Virus record (IMG/VR): IMGVR_UViG_3300008116_000004
Strand: one strand, 5' to 3'
Source of the DNA: a virus
DNA: 64,000 nt
In this document: positions 1 to 36,618 of the stretch, piece after piece
Layout of the letters: every line of letters begins with the position of its first letter
How positions within the stretch are numbered: position 1 is the stretch's first letter
The notes under the pieces: generated by a model
What the model was told of the DNA's origin: nothing
What the model saw: only the letters and a program-made list of their open reading frames with translations
Database searches by the model: none
Made by a program: the position numbers and the translations under genes

Positions 1-265
1 CAACCCAAGAAAGAGATGGTCCTTGTAATGTAAAAACTGCAATAAAAAGAAAAATATTACGCACCCAATCACTATTAAACTTAAATGCTTTATGTGTTAA
101 GTAGCGATGGTTGATCATACCTATTCCGATACCACCCATTATAACTGCTATACCATAAGCAATCAACCAATGATACCATGATGCATACATTATCATAGGT
201 ATAAAGGAAAGATGAGCAATTAATTGAGTTATTAATACAATATAGGAATCTAAAGTATATTTCAT
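1..265 (-). CDS. Membrane fatty-acid desaturase (delta-9/DesC-Ole1-like), N-terminal part; runs off the window edge
   Basis: Not in the ORF track. Manual translation from ATG at 265: MKYTLDSYIVLITQLIAH...GIGIGMINHRYLTHKAF...FTLQGPSLSWV. Hydrophobic helices, first His box HRxxxH and the QGP..W motif of delta-9 desaturases. Confidence 0.85.
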   Translation of the reverse strand, partial: MKYTLDSYIVLITQLIAHLSFIPMIMYASWYHWLIAYGIAVIMGGIGIGMINHRYLTHKAFKFNSDWVRNIFLFIAVFTLQGPSLSWV

Positions 266-273
266 TAGTTTAT

Positions 274-1431
274 TTATAGACTTGAAAAAGCTAATGTAAT
301 ATTAGTACCACCAAAACCAAACGAGTTGTTTAAGGTTACTTTTTGTTTGCTATTGTAGATTTCCGTAGGCAGATTAATATCTTTTTTAGATATAGAATTA
401 TCTAATTCGTCTAAATTCCAATTAGGTATTACCACATCATGTTTTAATGCTAAAAGACATGCAAGTGTCTCTATTGCACCTGCTGCACCAAAAAGATGTC
501 CATGTAAACTCTTTGTAGAACTGACTGGTATATATTTTGCTTTATCACCAAACAAACTAATTATACTCTGCAATTCAACTATATCACCTGTTGGTGTGCC
601 TGTACCATGTGCGTTAATATAGGTAATATCGTCAAACAAAATATTTTTAGTTGCAATTTGCATTGCTTTTATTTGTCCTGGTGTGTTAGGTTTAGTAACG
701 GATTCAGAACCATTAGTAGCACCATACCCTACTATTTCACCGTAAATATTAGCATTTCTTTTCAATGCGTGATCAAGCTCTTCTAATATAAAAATTACTG
801 AACCCTCAGACATAGTAATACCGTTTCTGTTTTTTGAGAACGGTTTGCAGTCATCACTTAATGCATTCATTGCTTTCCAGAATGCAAATTGTAATTCATT
901 AATACAAGCTTCCGCACCACCAGCTGCAAGACAATCATACTCCCCATATGCAATTTTTTTATATGCTTCACCGATTGCAGTTGATGCAGATGCACATGCT
1001 GTAGAATATGTAAAAGCTGGACCTGTTATATTCTCTTTTAAAGCAATAAAGTTAGCACCCATATTAACCACTGAGCAAACTAATGCGGTAGGTTTTACTT
1101 TATTCTTAGCAAATAAACTTCTATAAGATTCTTCGTATGTTAATGCACCACCACCATAACCAACACCTAAAAATATACCTTCTGGTTGTACGGAGCTATC
1201 ATTTTTTGCATCTAAGAAAGAAAGGTATGCCAGTCGTGTAAATCTATCAGTGACGTTTAAATCAAATCTATCAAAATGTGAATCTATATTATCTTTAACT
1301 ATATAAGCAGCCGATCCAAATATATACTCTTTGGTACCCTGCTTACCAGTAAAGAGTGATTCTTTAATTTCTGATAAATTATTACCAATAGGTGTTCTAC
1401 TACCTACACCCGTAACTACAACACGTCTCAT
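274..1431 (-). CDS. fabF: Beta-ketoacyl-ACP synthase II (FabF/KAS II-like)
   Basis: RRVVVTG start, TACAS catalytic Cys, NAHGTGT and GHLFGAAG His residues (Cys-His-His triad), C-terminal NSFGFGGTN. Confidence 0.93.
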   Translation of the reverse strand: MRRVVVTGVGSRTPIGNNLSEIKESLFTGKQGTKEYIFGSAAYIVKDNIDSHFDRFDLNVTDRFTRLAYLSFLDAKNDSSVQPEGIFLGVGYGGGALTYEESYRSLFAKNKVKPTALVCSVVNMGANFIALKENITGPAFTYSTACASASTAIGEAYKKIAYGEYDCLAAGGAEACINELQFAFWKAMNALSDDCKPFSKNRNGITMSEGSVIFILEELDHALKRNANIYGEIVGYGATNGSESVTKPNTPGQIKAMQIATKNILFDDITYINAHGTGTPTGDIVELQSIISLFGDKAKYIPVSSTKSLHGHLFGAAGAIETLACLLALKHDVVIPNWNLDELDNSISKKDINLPTEIYNSKQKVTLNNSFGFGGTNITLAFSSL

Positions 1432-1685
1432 TCTTTATCGATATTTTCGTAGAGGTAATCGATCAATTCTTCAATAGTTGTAGCACCACTTTCAATAGTA
1501 ATAGTATTAATTTTAAAGATATCTTCTAATTCAGACATAAAAGTTATTACTTCTAGTGAGTCTAGCTTTTCATTTAATTCTTTAAGACGGGATAACGGAT
1601 AGCTTCTATCAAATGTGCTAAGATCAATACCGTAACTTTTATTAAAGTGATCAAAAACTACTTTTGCGATCTCTTCTTTGGTCAT
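1428..1685 (-). CDS. Acyl carrier protein-like
   Basis: Small acidic protein with LDSLE phosphopantetheine-Ser motif followed by ELEDIF; GGAG SD before ATG at 1685; ATGA overlap with fabF. Confidence 0.8.
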   Translation of the reverse strand: MTKEEIAKVVFDHFNKSYGIDLSTFDRSYPLSRLKELNEKLDSLEVITFMSELEDIFKINTITIESGATTIEELIDYLYENIDKE

Positions 1686-1705
1686 TATAATCTCCATAAT
1701 ATAGT

Positions 1706-2040
1706 GTGAGGTGTTTCTGTTTCCAAGCACACCTCACGAAGCTCATGTGACTCAGGCTGCTAGAGCGTAAGCACCATATGCATTGTTATCGTTTGCATTT
1801 ACGAGTTTGCATCAGTCTCAGGTTAGCCTTTACTACACCTGTCGATCCTGTTTCGCCCCCATCAAAGATACACTGTGAGACACCGCTTTGCTCAGTGCGA
1901 ACAGTTATATACTAGTCTCTTCCGCCTTACCCTCTTTATAATAGGAGGACTGTTGCACCCAACGACCAGTGTATCCGTGGTGGAGGCGGCGGGTACTGCC
2001 CCCGCGTCCAGAATGTCTATTCTACTTCCGTCAACGACAT
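1706..2040 (-). ncRNA. ssrA: Circularly permuted (two-piece) tmRNA, alphaproteobacterial type
   Basis: Acceptor piece GGACGCGGGGGCAGTACCCGCCGCCTCCACCA ends at 1978; 117-nt intervening segment; coding piece begins GGGGGCGAAACAGGATCGAC at 1860; tag ORF 1796-1752 reads ANDNNAYGAYALAA*; terminal hairpin 1706-1737. Outer ends approximate. Confidence 0.93.
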
Positions 2041-2048
2041 CAGCTCTT

Positions 2049-2082
2049 TATTTATAGTATAGTTAAAAATTAAAATCAACTG
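2049..2082 (-). promoter_or_regulatory. Composite sigma70-like / T4 late promoter for tmRNA
   Basis: Minus strand CAGTTGATT-N17-TATAAATA; the -10 coincides with the T4 late consensus TATAAATA. Confidence 0.55.
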
Positions 2083-2286
2083 TTAAATCTTACCCCAATC
2101 GATCTTATTCCATATTCTCTCATTAATAAAATAAGACAAAGTCCATAAACAGTTAATAATAATAGTAGGTATAATTGCATCAGCCATATTCTGACCAGTA
2201 ACAAGAAGCATGATATAAGTTGTCATAATTACAAACAACCTGTAAATTAACGACTTAACAATCGTTCTTTTAAGAGTAGCTTTCAT
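2083..2286 (-). CDS. Small membrane protein (DUF2061-like)
   Basis: RTIVKSLIYR...ERIWNKIDWG pattern; two hydrophobic segments. Confidence 0.6.
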   Translation of the reverse strand: MKATLKRTIVKSLIYRLFVIMTTYIMLLVTGQNMADAIIPTIIINCLWTLSYFINERIWNKIDWGKI

Positions 2287-2981
2287 ACGTTATACTTCTC
2301 TTTATACTCTTGTCTTACTTGCATTAGTTTATTAACATATACATCTCTACGATCTTCAAATATCTGCGGCACTTCATTATCAACAGAAATTAAAATAACT
2401 ATTCTACTTACTGGTATATTATATCTCTCTTCAAACATAATAGCATATGCAGAGGCTTGACAAAAGTAATTAAGAATATAATCTCTGTTTTTATGTTTAC
2501 GAGCTGTCTTAAAATCAATAATAGAAAGTTTACCTTTCCATTCTGCAACACAGTCTACAGTACCTGCCATCTGAAGATGATCGGAATACATTCTTGTTTC
2601 TTGCAATCTTACATTATCAATATGATTATCTAAGAGAGGTTTTAACTCTTTAAAATTTAAAGAGTCGTTATAGTTATACTTAGAATAATCTATCTCATCA
2701 TTGTTAATGTAATCTTCACATAATTGATGAATACGAGTACCTCTAGTAGCAGCTTGTGTGCTGATACGAGTAGCTTCTTCTTCACCTACTTTTCTTCTCC
2801 ATTCCTGAATAGCTTTCTGATTCATAATACCTGTAACTGTAGTAACAGACGGATATAATAAACCTTCTGGCGTTTTATAATATCTACCAGAGTCTGTATT
2901 AACCTGTTCAAGTATATTATTTACTTCAGGAATCTCGATATGATTAAAAGTTTTTCTTTGTTTTAAAATATTTTCTAGCAT
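2283..2981 (-). CDS. PD-(D/E)XK exonuclease (T4-like phage exonuclease)
   Basis: YPSVTTV, RGTRIH, AGTVDC, IIDFKT, QASAY motifs. Confidence 0.85.
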   Translation of the reverse strand: MLENILKQRKTFNHIEIPEVNNILEQVNTDSGRYYKTPEGLLYPSVTTVTGIMNQKAIQEWRRKVGEEEATRISTQAATRGTRIHQLCEDYINNDEIDYSKYNYNDSLNFKELKPLLDNHIDNVRLQETRMYSDHLQMAGTVDCVAEWKGKLSIIDFKTARKHKNRDYILNYFCQASAYAIMFEERYNIPVSRIVILISVDNEVPQIFEDRRDVYVNKLMQVRQEYKEKYNV

Positions 2982-2982
2982 G

Positions 2983-3672
2983 TTACTTTATAAAATGATA
3001 ATCACCATCAGGTCCATTATCACTAAAAGCATTATCGTCAACTAAAATAAATCCCTTAGAACGTATATAATCAATAATAATATCTTTATGTGGTGCACCT
3101 TTGTTGTATTCTACTTTTTGTAATTCCATAATAAGATGTTTTGTATGCTGTAAACAGATATCAGCACCTTTAAGTACGTCTAGTTCTGCACCTTGTACAT
3201 CTATCTTAATCAGATCTGGTAAAGGAAAGTTTTTATTTTTAACTACATTATCTAAAGTAGATGTAGTATATTCTTTAATATGAGATTCGTTAAAATAATG
3301 TTCTGCACCAGAATTAAATTTAGGGTTTTCTCTGTAGTAAGAATTTCCACCAGGAAAAAAATTGTTCTGATAGAATTTAACTATATTACCAGTAGCGTCT
3401 GATAGTACACCGATGTTATAACCAGCAATATCAGAATCTTTAAAAATAAATTCTACTTCAGGCATTGCTTCAAAGCAGTAGAAGTTAGATGTAGGCCATA
3501 TTTGTTTTGCTTCATTTGTCCAGTGAAGTACACAAGCACCTATATCGTAAACTACCTCAGGTACAAACTTATAGTAGTTTTTAATTCTACTAAGATAGTT
3601 AGAATGCACCTGAGGTAGTAATTTTTTTTCGCTTAATTCTTTAAGATGTTTTTCAATTTCATTCATAATCAA
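2983..3672 (-). CDS. FkbM-family SAM methyltransferase
   Basis: VYDIGAC, FEAMP, DLIKIDVQGAELDVLKG. Confidence 0.85.
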   Translation of the reverse strand: MIMNEIEKHLKELSEKKLLPQVHSNYLSRIKNYYKFVPEVVYDIGACVLHWTNEAKQIWPTSNFYCFEAMPEVEFIFKDSDIAGYNIGVLSDATGNIVKFYQNNFFPGGNSYYRENPKFNSGAEHYFNESHIKEYTTSTLDNVVKNKNFPLPDLIKIDVQGAELDVLKGADICLQHTKHLIMELQKVEYNKGAPHKDIIIDYIRSKGFILVDDNAFSDNGPDGDYHFIK

Positions 3673-4445
3673 TTTAAGTAAGTAGATACTGTATCAGTCT
3701 CCTTATTAATATATCTTCTATTTTCCATAGCAGTCTTTTTAATAATAAAGTCTTTTACTAGTCCTGATCTTACAATATCCTCTTCTACAAATTCTACTGA
3801 ACTAAAATATTTATTCATTCTCTCTAGTATTTTCATAAATTTAAGAATACCAGATCTTTCATCATCATATACTAGATCAGTTTGTCTATAATCTCCACAG
3901 AAAATTATTCTTGAATTTTTACCTACACGTGTTATAACAGTGCATAGTTCACTATAGGTCATATTTTGACATTCATCTACTATAATTATAGTATTATCTA
4001 AAGTTGTTCCTCTTAGAAATGATGTTGTCTGGAAGTCTATTATACCTTTACCTTTAAGTATCTCATATGCATCACCTCTACCGTAAAGTTCTGAGCATAT
4101 TGATTGATAAGGTAGTTCAAATATTTTTGATTTTTCTTTTATTGAACCGGGAAGAAATCCCATATCTCGGGAAGGCACCACTGATCGTATCAGTGTAATA
4201 TTATTGTAGTCTTTATACTGTTCTATTTCTGAAAGAGCAAGGTAGAGTGAAATGAATGATTTGCCGGTACCAGGCAATCCATGTATTAAAATGTTTCTAC
4301 CATTTGAAAAGTCTTTGAACACACACTCCTGATTTTTTGTTTTGGGGATAATCGATTTGAGTATTAGGTTATTTTTTACTTGTTTAGCCTCTTGACGCTT
4401 TTGTTGTTTAATTAATCTCTTTTCAGCGCGTGTGAGTCTTTCCAT
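3669..4445 (-). CDS. phoH: PhoH-family ATPase
   Basis: GLPGTGKS Walker A, MGFLPG, FLRGTT, IIVDECQN, GDYRQTD, DIVRSGLV. Confidence 0.93.
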   Translation of the reverse strand: MERLTRAEKRLIKQQKRQEAKQVKNNLILKSIIPKTKNQECVFKDFSNGRNILIHGLPGTGKSFISLYLALSEIEQYKDYNNITLIRSVVPSRDMGFLPGSIKEKSKIFELPYQSICSELYGRGDAYEILKGKGIIDFQTTSFLRGTTLDNTIIIVDECQNMTYSELCTVITRVGKNSRIIFCGDYRQTDLVYDDERSGILKFMKILERMNKYFSSVEFVEEDIVRSGLVKDFIIKKTAMENRRYINKETDTVSTYLN

Positions 4446-4460
4446 GTGGTACCTCTTTTT

Positions 4461-4694
4461 TTACCAGGTGTTGACGGTACTCCCTCTATGTGCTCTTTTC
4501 ACTTTCTTTAAAACATCACGAAAACCTCCATCAGGTTTTCTCAAACCTAATCGAGTTGGATCTGCAATAGCAGGAGCCGATAATACTTGTTGAAGATGTG
4601 GGTTGTTTTCTACGTAGGCATCGTATTCAGAGATCGGCATGGATATGTCGAACTCTTTACCAGTTTTAGTATCATAAAACGTATAATTAGCCAT
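4461..4694 (-). CDS. FmdB-like small protein (T4-like conserved)
   Basis: MANYTFYDTKTGKEFD...KPDGGFRDVLKKV pattern. Confidence 0.5.
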   Translation of the reverse strand: MANYTFYDTKTGKEFDISMPISEYDAYVENNPHLQQVLSAPAIADPTRLGLRKPDGGFRDVLKKVKRAHRGSTVNTW

Positions 4695-4884
4695 TAACTA
4701 AAATGCCTTTCGACTTCCAATAATCCTGGATGTCTTTTTTATTTAGGGGATCTAACCCTTTAGAAAGCATTTCTTCTTCAACTAAATCTTGTAAATATGC
4801 TTTTTCATTAAGATTTCTAGGATTATAATACTCATCTATCAACTTATCTACTGTTACTTTAGTACTGTTAAGAATCTGAGACAC
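4687..4884 (-). CDS. Hypothetical protein
   Basis: Tiled ORF in the operon. Confidence 0.55.
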   Translation of the reverse strand: MSQILNSTKVTVDKLIDEYYNPRNLNEKAYLQDLVEEEMLSKGLDPLNKKDIQDYWKSKGILVNG

Positions 4885-5053
4885 CTAACATCTCCCTAAG
4901 TTTGTGTTGAACTCTTTTAAGAGCAGCTGGTTCGTGTTCATTGAATACTATGAGGGTCTCTTGAACACCTTTTTTGCGACCCTCAAGCCAATAATAGAAT
5001 GCTACCACTGCAATAAGCAGAGTATATAAAACTGCGCTTGTTATATTATCCAT
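4868..5053 (-). CDS. Hypothetical membrane-anchored protein
   Basis: N-terminal TM helix; tiled ORF. Confidence 0.55.
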   Translation of the reverse strand: MDNITSAVLYTLLIAVVAFYYWLEGRKKGVQETLIVFNEHEPAALKRVQHKLREMLGVSDS

Positions 5054-5250
5054 TAGTCGTCTTCGTATGATAAGAGTTTATCAAGATCTTTTGAGCGTAA
5101 AGCATTATCATAATTACGGTAATGCTTCTGCATTTTTTCTCGTTTTACTTCTCTAAAACTGAGATTTTCTTCTTCTGTAATGTAACTGTTATTAAAAGTC
5201 TTTTTTTTATTTTTAAATTCTGTTTTATGGAATTTAGTAGAGTTGTTCAT
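5053..5250 (-). CDS. Hypothetical protein
   Basis: Tiled ORF. Confidence 0.55.
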   Translation of the reverse strand: MNNSTKFHKTEFKNKKKTFNNSYITEEENLSFREVKREKMQKHYRNYDNALRSKDLDKLLSYEDD

Positions 5251-5675
5251 TCTGGAATAAGCCCTGGAAATGCTAGGTTAACTACTTCTTTTGTAATGCC
5301 CTTAAAAGGACATTTTTTATCTTTCATGCTTAAAAGAAGCTTAGCATCATCTGCACTTACATTTTCAAGCATCTGGATAAAAATCTGTTCTCGCCTCATC
5401 GGCTTAAGATTCGGATTTCCACCTTCTACTAACAAATAAAAGCGAGGCACTTCGTTAATAAATGCCTTAGGTTCATCAAATTTATTTGGAATATAAGGTG
5501 GTACACCTTCTGGTAAAAGAAATTTAACATTAGGATCGAACCAGCCTGCAAGCACAGTTCGCACTGCTAAATTATTATTAAGTTTAAGCGCTTGCACTCG
5601 TTCTTCTTTTTTCTTCAATTCATTAATTTTAGCAAATAACTTTGCTACACCATCAATCTTATATTGAAATGACAT
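5247..5675 (-). CDS. Conserved T4-like phage hypothetical protein
   Basis: FDPNVKFLLPEGVPPY, RREQIFIQMLE; typically next to RNase H in T4-like phages. Confidence 0.65.
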   Translation of the reverse strand: MSFQYKIDGVAKLFAKINELKKKEERVQALKLNNNLAVRTVLAGWFDPNVKFLLPEGVPPYIPNKFDEPKAFINEVPRFYLLVEGGNPNLKPMRREQIFIQMLENVSADDAKLLLSMKDKKCPFKGITKEVVNLAFPGLIPE

Positions 5676-6535
5676 TAGAAATCACCTATATTTTCCATCA
5701 TATTTTTAAGTTTATAATTAATAAAATAGTTAAACAGTTTACTCTTATCCTTACCTTGTTCGCTGAGATATTTATTAATAACTTCGGTTCGAATACTATC
5801 TGGTACCATTGATAGATCCACCATATGCTTATTACGCATAAAGTTTCTATCTGTAGTACTATCTAAGAGCACTGCACCATCATTGTAGATCTTATTAATC
5901 TTTTTCTGAGTAAGAGGTTTCTGACGTTTATCAGCTACAAAAGTATCATCATCAGATAATACATTTGGTATACCATCACCAACATCACCTTTAAGAATAT
6001 GCTCTACAAGAAAGCGCTCTGGATTATCATGTGTAATCCATTTCTTTCTTACTGGGTCATATTGCTTAACGTTAGACTGTGTTTGTAATTGAACGAAGTC
6101 TTTATCACCAGAAAGGATAATAATCTTATGTACATCGTTAGTATGTTTGACTAGTGATGCAATAATATCATCAGCTTCAGCTGTATCGACCTGAATGACA
6201 GGATAGGGCAAATTATCTTTTATTTCTTGTTTAATTTTATTAAAGATATCAAATATATTAGTCCAATTTAATTCAGACTCTTCACGATTCTTTTTACGGT
6301 TGGCTTTGTAGTAAGGGAAGATCTGCTTACGCCAATAGTTCTTATCATCACATGCTATAATCATCTCACCATATTCTTCACCAAACTTCTGTTTGTATGA
6401 ACGAAGTGAGTTGATCACCATATGACGAAACAATCCTTCTTCGATAGGAATGTTCGTATGATTTCCAATCTGCATCATCAGATTAGATATCATGACTTGG
6501 TTAAAATCAACGATAATCATTTTAAATGTTTCCAC
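5675..6535 (-). CDS. rnh: T4-type RNase H (5'-3' exonuclease)
   Basis: IIVDFNQ, YWRK..FPYYKANR, EADDII, SGDKDFVQL, GDVGDGIPN. Confidence 0.93.
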   Translation of the reverse strand: METFKMIIVDFNQVMISNLMMQIGNHTNIPIEEGLFRHMVINSLRSYKQKFGEEYGEMIIACDDKNYWRKQIFPYYKANRKKNREESELNWTNIFDIFNKIKQEIKDNLPYPVIQVDTAEADDIIASLVKHTNDVHKIIILSGDKDFVQLQTQSNVKQYDPVRKKWITHDNPERFLVEHILKGDVGDGIPNVLSDDDTFVADKRQKPLTQKKINKIYNDGAVLLDSTTDRNFMRNKHMVDLSMVPDSIRTEVINKYLSEQGKDKSKLFNYFINYKLKNMMENIGDF

Positions 6536-6572
6536 ATAAATCTGTACTATAATATATTATATAGTTATTAAT

Positions 6573-6962
6573 TTATGTGTGCAAGTTATTTTCTTCAATT
6601 ATTCTATCCAATTCTTTCTTAGCATCTGCTTCTAGTGTGATTGTAGCTTCTGCTAAGTCTTGAAACGAATGATTCAGATCTTTTGTTGTATAAACCATAG
6701 CACGGATTGCTTCTTCTAAGAAAACTACCGATTTTACTACACTTTCATCTGGTTTAATTGTGAGACCATAAGATGTAAGTACTGCAAAGACTGCTTCGAA
6801 AGCATCTGCTGTTACTTCATCACAATATGTACGTCTCACTTGTTCAACATGATCTATAGTCTGTTCAAGATTATTTGGAAAAGGACTGTTAGATTTTGTT
6901 GGAAATTGTATAATGTTGTCCATATTTCTGCCATATAGTATGGTGACATTATTATTTATCAT
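6573..6962 (-). CDS. Hypothetical protein
   Basis: ORF track; probable start at MDNIIQFP. Confidence 0.55.
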   Translation of the reverse strand: MINNNVTILYGRNMDNIIQFPTKSNSPFPNNLEQTIDHVEQVRRTYCDEVTADAFEAVFAVLTSYGLTIKPDESVVKSVVFLEEAIRAMVYTTKDLNHSFQDLAEATITLEADAKKELDRIIEENNLHT

Positions 6963-7350
6963 ACTTTATAGCTTGTATGATTACTGCAGCTGCCACCGTT
7001 TTTTTATCTTTAGTAATAGAAGCAATAATAGATGGTCTATAATTATTTGGTACTATAGCACTCAATCTATTTGATGCTCCACCAAAGAGTTTTATTTCGG
7101 GTGCACCTGATGTGTTATAAAACAAAACTATATCTTTAGGTCTTACGTTATTATCAAATCCAGTACCTAAAGCTTTTGCGCACGCTTCTTTAATTGCAAA
7201 ACGTTTAGCATAATAAACAGCTTCGTTTGTATCTTCAGTAATTTCTTCTTGAGAAAAATTATTTTTGATAAATCTTTCTCTGATTGATCTCTTTAATATA
7301 TCTTTAATTCTAGATACATTACAGAGATCAATTCCAATTCCTATAATCAT
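6952..7350 (-). CDS. acpS: Holo-ACP synthase (4'-phosphopantetheinyl transferase)
   Basis: MIIGIGIDL, AKRFAIKEACAKALGTG, SGAP; C-terminal SITKD resembles the rhizobial ITDD type. Confidence 0.92.
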   Translation of the reverse strand: MIIGIGIDLCNVSRIKDILKRSIRERFIKNNFSQEEITEDTNEAVYYAKRFAIKEACAKALGTGFDNNVRPKDIVLFYNTSGAPEIKLFGGASNRLSAIVPNNYRPSIIASITKDKKTVAAAVIIQAIKYDK

Positions 7351-34821: not shown

Positions 34822-35067
34822 TCACTTGTACCTTTTGTTTATCTCATCAATCCTAATATTAAGATACTCTATAATGAAATCTTTTGCAACTGATTTTTCA
34901 AAGTATATCTTGGCATAGTTAAGTTCATCAACAAAGGCAGCTTTTTTCATCTGATCTACTGAATAATTATAAGGCAGATCAGTCCCAGAGTGCCTCAAAG
35001 TACTTGCCGAAAAGCCTAAATCCGTTTGATTTTCTTGCATTCCACTTCTCCCAGCCTTCTTTGTCAA
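34822..35067 (-). CDS. Hypothetical protein (start uncertain)
   Basis: ORF track; overlaps the upstream gene. Confidence 0.4.
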   Translation of the reverse strand: MTKKAGRSGMQENQTDLGFSASTLRHSGTDLPYNYSVDQMKKAAFVDELNYAKIYFEKSVAKDFIIEYLNIRIDEINKRYK

Positions 35068-35563
35068 ACTTATGTGTATGATTAGGACCTTCTACCATTT
35101 CCCAATAATGTTCTTTCTTGGGTTTAGACTCTGGTGTTTCACCCATCTTATATAAAGTTTCGTCTAATACATTACCTTCAATATCCACTTTTCTCCAGAG
35201 TATATCTGTTTCACCTGTATGAAACTGATCATCTGCTCTATCATCAATCTTTTGTGCAAATGCCCAGATCATCTCATCAAGCACCCAATCCCAACGTTTA
35301 TGAAAATTATCATCAGTATCATATTCGTTCTTTTTAGGAGGTGCAGATGAAGAACGAAGTTCTTCTGGGACATCCTCGTCATCGACTAATGGTGCACCAT
35401 GCTTTGTTGCTTGAAGCTGAACAAGTAAAGGGTGAATGATAATAGAAAGAGTATGATCCATTGACCATGTATCCCACTTATCAATCTGAATTTTTATCTT
35501 ACGTTCAGCACCAAATTTTCTAGGGTATTTTCCAAGTGATACTTTCATCAGAATACAATCCAC
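34979..35563 (-). CDS. Conserved T4-like hypothetical protein
   Basis: WDTWSMDHTL, RWDWVLDEMIWAF, GFRLFGKYF..LWD. Confidence 0.7.
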   Translation of the reverse strand: MDCILMKVSLGKYPRKFGAERKIKIQIDKWDTWSMDHTLSIIIHPLLVQLQATKHGAPLVDDEDVPEELRSSSAPPKKNEYDTDDNFHKRWDWVLDEMIWAFAQKIDDRADDQFHTGETDILWRKVDIEGNVLDETLYKMGETPESKPKKEHYWEMVEGPNHTHKFDKEGWEKWNARKSNGFRLFGKYFEALWD

Positions 35564-36420: not shown

Positions 36421-36618
36421 TCAACTTTGTTTATGTGATCTCTTGTACCACTTACACCAGCCTTCAGGATCAATATCACCTGCTACTGCTGTACACTTAT
36501 TAGGTTCTCTCCACATTGTGCAATTTTTACAAATTTGCCCTTCATGTGGGTGTGCTTGATAACTAGCTTCTTGTTTAGATGCTTTTTCTTCGTTAAGAAA
36601 TTCTGTAAAGCTTTTCAT
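36421..36618 (-). CDS. High-potential iron-sulfur protein (HiPIP) with capsid-targeting-like N-terminus
   Basis: YQ..P...QICKNC..W...KC.AV.GDI.P.GWC.WY: four Cys in HiPIP spacing; leader MKSFTEFLNEE. Confidence 0.82.
   Translation of the reverse strand: MKSFTEFLNEEKASKQEASYQAHPHEGQICKNCTMWREPNKCTAVAGDIDPEGWCKWYKRSHKQS

Follow-up and report, generated by a model that had tools for sequence, protein, structure and literature searches.

The viral DNA of IMG/VR record IMGVR_UViG_3300008116_000004 analyzed here, a stretch of 64,000 nucleotides (nt) hereafter called the window, is a portion of an uncultured T4-like freshwater myophage genome. It encodes a predicted acyl carrier protein (ACP), a FabF-like beta-ketoacyl-ACP synthase (KAS), the start of a membrane fatty-acid desaturase, and a holo-ACP synthase (AcpS). 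Several unrelated large phages share the ACP-KAS-desaturase unit, and phages thus appear to own a lipid-chain module. We give an even chance to the reading that this unit is a conserved phage acyl-chain module, which would be expressed late in infection and plug into the type II fatty acid synthesis (FAS II) of the host, yielding acyl chains that are elongated or unsaturated.

Identification of the ACP and KAS genes

The original prediction, made from the letters of the window, had proposed three coupled minus-strand genes directly after a transfer-messenger RNA (tmRNA), namely an ACP with its serine in LDSLE, a FabF-type KAS with an intact Cys-His-His triad, and a His-box desaturase at 1-265, as well as an AcpS about 5 kb upstream among replication genes. 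All four were recovered where they had been proposed (Table 1). The ACP stop codon overlaps the KAS start codon by 4 nt (ATGA), and the KAS stop codon lies 8 nt before the desaturase ATG. From this arrangement, the core of the cassette is predicted to be a translationally coupled pair of an ACP and a FabF-like condensing enzyme.

Table 1 Features of the window and gene orders of the related loci
Feature	Position or loci	Strand	Remarks
Delta9-type (SCD/DesC-like) membrane fatty-acid desaturase, first 88 of 257 codons	2-265	-	Gene extends about 510 nt past the left window edge
FabF-like beta-ketoacyl-ACP synthase, 385 aa, phage-specific clade	274-1431	-	PF00109 124 bits and PF02801 106.9 bits
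Predicted acyl carrier protein, divergent, 85 aa	1428-1685	-	Ser43 in K-L-D-S-L; pI 4.4
Permuted (two-piece) alphaproteobacterial-type tmRNA	1705-2083	-	Rfam RF01849 121 bits; RF04321 (permuted) 106 bits over 1752-2035; directly upstream of the ACP gene
TATAAATA, T4-type late-promoter motif (predicted)	2049-2056	-	Just upstream of the tmRNA core
DUF2061 membrane protein, 67 aa	2083-2286	-	Abuts the tmRNA
FkbM-family methyltransferase	2983-3672	-	Between PhoH and PD-(D/E)XK nuclease
AcpS-type holo-ACP synthase, 132 aa	6952-7350	-	Among replication genes
phrog_11543 homologue, function not assigned	34979-35563	-	Beside the tRNA array, 33 kb from the cassette
Window's lineage with desaturase	Window, L260, L261/262		tmRNA-ACP-KAS-desaturase-gp33
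Window's lineage without desaturase	L002, L003, L014, L016, L093		tmRNA-ACP-KAS-gp33
Other backbones, ten distinct loci	L011, L012/13, L017, L018 group, L021-L023, L024/25, L094, L095		ACP-desaturase-KAS, 4-nt overlaps at most junctions; desaturase between ACP and KAS in L011-13, L017-L025, L094-96

The open reading frame assigned to the ACP by the program (1428-1730, minus strand) opens at a GTG inside the 3' end of the tmRNA. The ATG at 1685 has a GGAG 7 nt upstream, lies about 20 nt after the tmRNA, and agrees with the 85-amino-acid (aa) gene calls in other assemblies; it is likely the start codon, rather than the GTG in window 1686-1730. Among the profiles by which the original prediction could be checked, ketoacyl-synt, ACPS, and, with the full gene, FA_desaturase all gave matches. 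PP-binding fell short, as the window ACP scored 17.7 bits against the Pfam cut-off of 20.8; the orthologue in L012 scored 24.7 bits, above the cut-off. A profile built from 15 phage ACP orthologues, in all of which D42-S43 is invariant, matched 101 ACPs in the PDB, and the top match, 2n50, extended over the full length (E 2.8e-9). The AlphaFold2 (AF2) model consisted of four helices (mean predicted local distance difference test score, pLDDT, 84) and placed Ser43 at the N-terminus of helix II. The top 50 Foldseek matches of this model were all carrier proteins with template-modeling (TM) scores of 0.6-0.8. The phage ACPs are acidic, with isoelectric points (pI) of 4.1-4.5. Taken together, the orthologue profile and the model indicated that the 85-aa protein is a predicted ACP with Ser43 as the putative phosphopantetheine site.

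The best PDB match of the KAS was the KAS II structure 1j3n (239 bits), as compared with about 190 bits for KAS I, and the TACA, NAHGT, and STKS..GH motifs were aligned. Cys146, His275, and His312, which make up the proposed triad, and also Lys307 were invariant in 21 clade members sharing 47-98% identity. The top NCBIfam model was fabF TIGR03150, whose score of 316 bits was under the equivalog cut-off of 493.75. Because of this score, and because the protein belongs to a separate clade with a long stem, we describe it as FabF-like and not as FabF itself.

Recovery of the complete desaturase

The 88-aa desaturase fragment alone gave no match in Pfam, NCBIfam, or the PDB, and neither tblastn against phage sequences nor a pattern scan of IMG/VR found any; phmmer against 1.8 billion representatives returned only 38 short, unnamed relatives. 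The full gene was recovered by an exact-protein look-up of the KAS, which led to six independent contigs running past the window edge. One of them, L005, shares 1482 bases with the window (window 1-1482), with 100% identity throughout, and continues leftward. The complete desaturase (L005:11167-11940) is a protein of 257 aa, and it matched PF00487 with 77.8 bits against a cut-off of 29.7. It has all three His boxes, HRYLTH (53-58), HREHH (91-95), and HNNHH (218-222), and the NxxxH motif NIFSH (183-187), and these align to the stearoyl-CoA desaturase (SCD) SCD1 structure 4zyo. Its sole sequence matches in the PDB were the human and mouse SCD1 structures 4zyo and 4ymk. The nine His and one Asn ligands of the di-iron centre were invariant or nearly so in 21 desaturase homologues (23-78% identical). 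Beyond the desaturase, L005 carries T4 gp33 (Trans_coact), gp59, gp32, and baseplate genes. Since gp33, gp59, and gp32 directly follow it, the module ends with the desaturase, and the suggestion that the operon might continue past the edge was not borne out by the genes left of position 1.

A search of the related viral records for 2Fe-2S ferredoxin (Fer2) genes was negative. The window encodes a 65-aa Cys-rich protein (36421-36618, minus strand), which is a possible candidate for an electron carrier of the desaturase. The complex predicted for the desaturase with the ACP reached a score of 0.07 (mark, 0.32), which decides the matter in neither direction.

AcpS and the partner enzymes of FAS II

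The AcpS scored 74.7 bits on TIGR00516 (cut-off 59.8) and 43.8 bits on PF01648. Its PDB matches were AcpS structures, and its GIDL and FAIKEA (KEA) motifs aligned to Vibrio cholerae AcpS 3qmn. An AcpS gene is present at the matching position in L002 and L014, and not in L003. Among five whole cassette-bearing viral records, it was found in G005, a relative in the window's lineage, and not in G001-G004, which include a complete 364-kb cassette phage. Judging from this distribution, AcpS is a lineage-specific accessory confined to one lineage; therefore, carrier activation would fall to the host in most cassette phages. The idea that the divergent ACP needs the phage AcpS, which would insulate the pathway from the host, does not agree with its absence from the complete 364-kb phage and three other large records.

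Partner enzymes were sought in the same five related records, one of which is 100% complete, and not in the window's own 64 kb. In these records, we found no FabD, no FabA/Z (including PF07977), no FabG/I-type reductase (including PF13561), no LpxL-type acyltransferase (PF03279), and no PlsC-type acyltransferase. An AMP-binding enzyme was found only in jumbo phages, far from the cassette (about 200 kb in one of them), and in none of the T4-like records. PHROGs contained no family for KAS, ACP, or AcpS. Since these FAS and acyltransferase genes were not found, host enzymes would be needed for malonyl loading, the reductive cycle, and off-loading. The pathway is, by gene content, not self-contained. 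The original claim of a dedicated viral pathway held in part: the ACP, KAS, and desaturase behave as a conserved unit across lineages, as described below, in keeping with a dedicated acyl-chain module, and the remaining FAS functions would have to come from the host.

Distribution and ancestry of the cassette

A KAS search of 5.8 billion proteins returned a tight, metagenome-only group of 34 clusters (380-396 aa, 47-98% identical), below which identity fell sharply, to about 40%, for the ordinary FabF proteins of 410 aa. In one representative of each of 185k species, no cellular KAS relative above 39% identity was found. In the phylogenetic tree, 26 phage KAS proteins formed one clade with an SH-like approximate likelihood ratio (SH-aLRT) support of 100 and a stem of 1.31 changes per site.

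Gene order was surveyed with purpose-built hidden Markov models (HMMs). The ACP and KAS genes were linked in every locus that holds both, with 4-nt overlaps at nearly all junctions and with the desaturase between them in some loci (Table 1). The backbones range from 140-kb T4-like phages to the 364-kb jumbo phage, whose genome has terminal repeats and is rated 100% complete. The window desaturase belongs to a different subfamily from the cassette desaturases of the other lineages (23-29% identity) and shares 36-44% identity with a separate set of short desaturases. It was therefore recruited independently, and a desaturase has joined the ACP-KAS pair at least twice. Because the catalytic residues are invariant over KAS proteins that are 47-98% identical and desaturases that are 23-78% identical, the module is likely to be under selection.

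Other arrangements of short desaturases were also observed. A 145-kb T4-like phage (L025:7489-11784) has the ACP, three tandem diverged desaturase paralogues, the KAS, and then a gene for a 'metal-dependent hydrolase' (PF10118). Pfam does not detect the first paralogue, which was found with a purpose-built HMM. Four and five scattered short desaturase paralogues, with one AMP-binding enzyme far from the cassette, are present in G002 (286 kb) and G003 (364 kb), the contigs of L018 and L019. Short SCD-like proteins have thus undergone a large expansion that is specific to phages. The window desaturase has its closest relatives on marine pelagimyophage-like contigs (L173, L175, L176), in islands with radical-SAM, TauD, 2OG-Fe, Asp/Arg-hydroxylase, and FMN-reductase genes, and in phage Mosig (L015:5923-6573), where the gene adjoins tail-fibre genes. 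Not all of the short 'desaturases' in the radical-SAM islands and in Mosig may act on lipids.

The cellular sister groups of the phage KAS clade had moderate support (SH-aLRT 81-90) and 33-37% identity. Their KAS genes abut their own ACP gene and are not housekeeping fabF. In the pair of loci L212:1929-6524 / L253:471-7113, an alphaproteobacterial metagenome-assembled genome (MAG) carries PlsC-like, ACP, KAS, P450, and LpxL-like (lipid A) acyltransferase genes, and a Burkholderiales MAG carries DegT aminotransferase, alpha/beta hydrolase, ACP, and KAS genes beside HlyD and MacB-type (ABC) exporter genes. The tree and these gene neighbourhoods favour descent of the phage KAS from a specialised ACP-KAS pair.

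Putative promoter and genomic context

The T4-type late-promoter motif TATAAATA is rarer in the 64-kb window than expected (4 occurrences versus 12.8). All five lineage members that were examined (L002, L003, L005, L014, and L016) have it in a conserved position, 318-372 nt ahead of the ACP start codon. The copy just upstream of the tmRNA core is likely the promoter for tmRNA-ACP-KAS(-desaturase), and its position suggests late co-transcription of the tmRNA, ACP, and KAS, with promoter function and timing predicted from the motif. A second copy at 271-278 (minus strand) overlaps the stop codon of the KAS and lies only 5 nt ahead of the ATG of the desaturase. It is probably coincidental, as it is too near the ATG for a normal leader, though the motif is depleted in the window. 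A sigma-70 promoter scan gave 40 sites against 37.6 expected, which is the chance level.

The window has a GC content of about 35% throughout and 24 tRNA genes, and the closest isolates at the DNA level are Methylophilales phage Melnitz, pelagimyophages, and cyanomyophages. The minus-strand genes run, 5' to 3', from a 373-aa conserved protein through AcpS, a 129-aa protein, RNase H, five small genes, PhoH, the FkbM methyltransferase, the PD-(D/E)XK nuclease, and the DUF2061 membrane protein to the tmRNA, ACP, KAS, and the start of the desaturase. ARAGORN made no tmRNA call in the window, though the Rfam models matched there. The same tmRNA arrangement is found in L002-L004. The tmRNA is of the alpha type, yet Melnitz, a related phage with a similar tmRNA, infects a betaproteobacterial methylotroph. 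In Melnitz, gp33 and gp59 directly follow the tmRNA, and the ACP-KAS(-desaturase) genes are therefore regarded as an insertion at the tmRNA-gp33 junction, which differs between relatives. The FkbM methyltransferase is not at the corresponding position in the relatives L003 and L014.

A homologue of the phrog_11543 protein of the window lies directly after the KAS in two other lineages (L017:4014-4724, with an ATGA overlap; L011:10192-10878 and L012:10189-10926). The AF2 model obtained for this protein was poor (pLDDT 68), and Foldseek found nothing similar to it. The protein could be a fourth cassette member or its position could be a coincidence, and we do not count it in the module.

Proposed role of the module

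Based on these results, we propose the following model. Apo-ACP would be phosphopantetheinylated by the phage AcpS where present, and otherwise by the host AcpS. Host FabD would load malonate onto the carrier, and the phage KAS would condense malonyl-ACP with host-derived acyl chains. Each round of elongation would be completed by host FabG, FabZ, and FabI. With reductant from the host, the O2-dependent di-iron desaturase would then introduce a double bond in cis configuration. Late in infection, the acyl chains of the envelope lipids would thereby become more numerous, longer, and more unsaturated, which would serve membrane supply or fluidity. Of this model, the sequences show what the four proteins are and that they are intact, that they are linked and of phage-specific ancestry, and that the related viral records searched have none of the other FAS and acyltransferase genes; the substrates, the product, its destination, and the timing are our proposals.

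Several points weigh against this model. Half of the window's own lineage is without the desaturase, and the relatives of the window desaturase in the radical-SAM/dioxygenase islands are without ACP or KAS. SCD/DesC-type enzymes usually act on acyl-CoA or acyl-lipids and not on acyl-ACP, so that a biochemical coupling of the desaturase to the ACP is not a given. No electron donor was identified in the search of the related records for Fer2 genes. The ACP is very divergent, falling below the Pfam cut-off, and might not be recognized by host FabD/G/Z/I or acyltransferases. The nearest cellular KAS relatives are dedicated ACP-KAS pairs in specialised clusters, which favours a special product over bulk lipid.

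The strongest alternative is a dedicated thiotemplated pathway, in which a chain on the phage ACP would be extended by the KAS, desaturated while tethered in the manner of JamB/JamC, and given to one defined acceptor, for example lipid A, a small molecule, or a protein, rather than to bulk membrane lipid. We consider this possible, though distinctly less probable than the host-feeding module. In most lineages, the genes overlap in the order ACP-desaturase-KAS, which suggests that the three proteins act on a single tethered intermediate, and the three tandem desaturases between ACP and KAS in one phage point the same way. So do the sister cellular KAS proteins, which lie in ACP-KAS pairs beside a lipid A acyltransferase and a P450, or beside an aminotransferase, a hydrolase, and an ABC exporter, and the high divergence of the phage ACP from housekeeping AcpP. 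On the other side, the cassette has no linked acyltransferase, thioesterase, or acyl-ACP ligase; neither PlsC nor LpxL was found in the five related records, the AMP-binding enzyme of the jumbo phages lies far away, and some members of the window's lineage do without the desaturase. To our knowledge, none of the short-class membrane SCD-type enzymes has been shown to use acyl-ACP, which also counts against a tethered product. In its general form, this alternative says that large aquatic phages own a thiotemplated lipid pathway that, late in infection, attaches one defined unsaturated acyl group to a particular target, be it lipid A, some other envelope lipid, or a protein, rather than boosting bulk lipid; we put this forward only tentatively. 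If a dedicated product were true, it would be, as far as we found, the first phage-encoded thiotemplated lipid pathway.

It is rather unlikely that there is no pathway link at all, that is, that the desaturase and the ACP-KAS pair are auxiliary genes independent of each other, gathered at shared insertion-tolerant sites. The desaturase would then act on membrane lipids like the viral fatty acid desaturases (vFADs) of cyanophages, and the ACP-KAS pair would serve an unrelated need, for example lipoate, biotin, or fatty-acid precursor supply. Short desaturases are indeed numerous and scattered (five in G003 and four in G002), L173, L175, and Mosig have them with neither ACP nor KAS, the ACP-KAS pair occurs without a desaturase in five loci (L002, L003, L014, L016, and L093), and the tmRNA-gp33 junction is variable among relatives. 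Against this stands the insertion of the desaturase between ACP and KAS, with 4-nt overlaps, in at least ten distinct loci on several backbones. Moreover, a different desaturase subfamily was taken up beside the pair in the window's lineage, and such repeated adjacency is unlikely without a functional link.

An artefact, either a host-phage chimeric assembly or decaying functionless host genes, is extremely improbable and already contradicted: such artefacts do occur, as the KAS matches of 30-42% identity in the phage collection turned out to be host FabF/FabB in contaminated 'phage' records and not relatives, but a chimera is excluded here, because six independent assemblies from different samples share the identical gene order, index entries for the identical KAS protein exist in 58 blocks of the collection, T4 core genes flank both sides, and the GC content at third codon positions (GC3) of the module (0.18-0.23) equals that of its neighbours, while the KAS clade was not found in cellular genomes and its catalytic residues are invariant over deep divergence.

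Returning to the host-feeding module, its interest would lie in the supply of envelope lipid or fluidity for large phage bursts in tiny streamlined cells, perhaps in cold lakes. Until now, lipid genes of phages have been viewed as lone desaturases borrowed from the host; here, in contrast, the carrier and the condensing enzyme form a coupled pair, deeply diverged and phage-specific, which desaturases have joined repeatedly and which is found on a range of backbones. This would imply that viruses of abundant freshwater bacteria themselves govern the length and unsaturation of acyl chains.

Comparison with known systems

The original prediction knew of no described phage with carrier, activator, elongase, and desaturase together. 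This holds only in part. In a single sentence, Zaragoza-Solas et al. 2020 (PMC7029224) reported 'fabF, stearoyl-CoA desaturase' as unique to freshwater pelagimyophages ('fonsimyophages', group PMP-D); the same paper describes PMP-D as having no curli operon. Like the window, these phages are T4-like freshwater pelagimyophage relatives with a fabF-like gene and an SCD-like desaturase, and the two are probably the same or sister gene sets. Unlike our analysis, which describes an ACP-centred cassette, that report mentions no ACP, AcpS, operon structure, or other phage lineages. We found no description of a phage ACP-KAS-desaturase cassette in the full-text literature. What is new is thus the ACP-centred cassette; viral lipid auxiliary genes, and the mention of fabF with a desaturase, were already known.

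A precedent for the unsaturation of lipids by viruses is provided by the three-His-box, Delta9-type vFADs, which have been proposed to unsaturate C16 chains and raise membrane fluidity. The DesC-like vFAD of cyanophages showed Delta9 activity in yeast, where C16 chains were unsaturated (Roitman et al. 2017, PMC5776448), and the viral desaturases of cryopeg-brine phages are also lone genes (Zhong et al. 2020, PMC7300359). In contrast to these lone, host-acquired genes, the cassette desaturases are short (243-257 aa), belong to phage-wide subfamilies, and are embedded in or attached to an ACP-KAS pair. A tblastn search of the desaturase against cyanophage genomes gave no match.

The JamA/JamB/JamC-type cassettes of cyanobacterial natural-product pathways consist of an acyl-ACP ligase, a membrane desaturase, and an ACP. 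The likeness is a membrane enzyme of the FA_desaturase family beside a dedicated carrier that feeds a ketosynthase. The difference is that the phage cassette has no adjacent acyl-ACP ligase and that its KAS is of the stand-alone FabF type, not a polyketide synthase (PKS) module. Membership in the JamABC type was rejected, as the T4-like records have no AMP-binding gene and that of the jumbo phage lies about 200 kb away.

In rhizobia, NodF/NodE and AcpXL with FabF1XL/FabF2XL are dedicated pairs of an ACP and FabF-like KAS that borrow the housekeeping FabD/G/Z/I for one special unsaturated or very long chain. The AcpXL system comprises the dedicated ACP, two XL-type KAS, FabZXL, a dehydrogenase, and the LpxXL acyltransferase. 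Membership of the phage cassette in the AcpXL/FabF1XL-FabF2XL/LpxXL system was rejected: it has one KAS only, this KAS scored 173 bits on PRK06501 and 34 bits on PRK06519, which we take to be the XL-type KAS models, versus 316 bits on fabF, and the five related records contain no PF03279, PF07977, or PF13561. LpxXL, FabZXL, and the dehydrogenase belong to the rhizobial systems and were not found in those five records, the rhizobial systems have no O2-dependent desaturase, and the phage KAS shares at most 39% identity with any cellular KAS. With an ACP, a KAS, and, in the five related records, no further FAS genes, the cassette has the architecture of the NodF/NodE pair. The AcpXL/FabXL analogy of the original prediction is nevertheless echoed in the ancestry of the phage genes, as the nearest cellular relatives of the phage KAS are such dedicated ACP-KAS pairs, one of them beside an LpxL-type lipid A acyltransferase.

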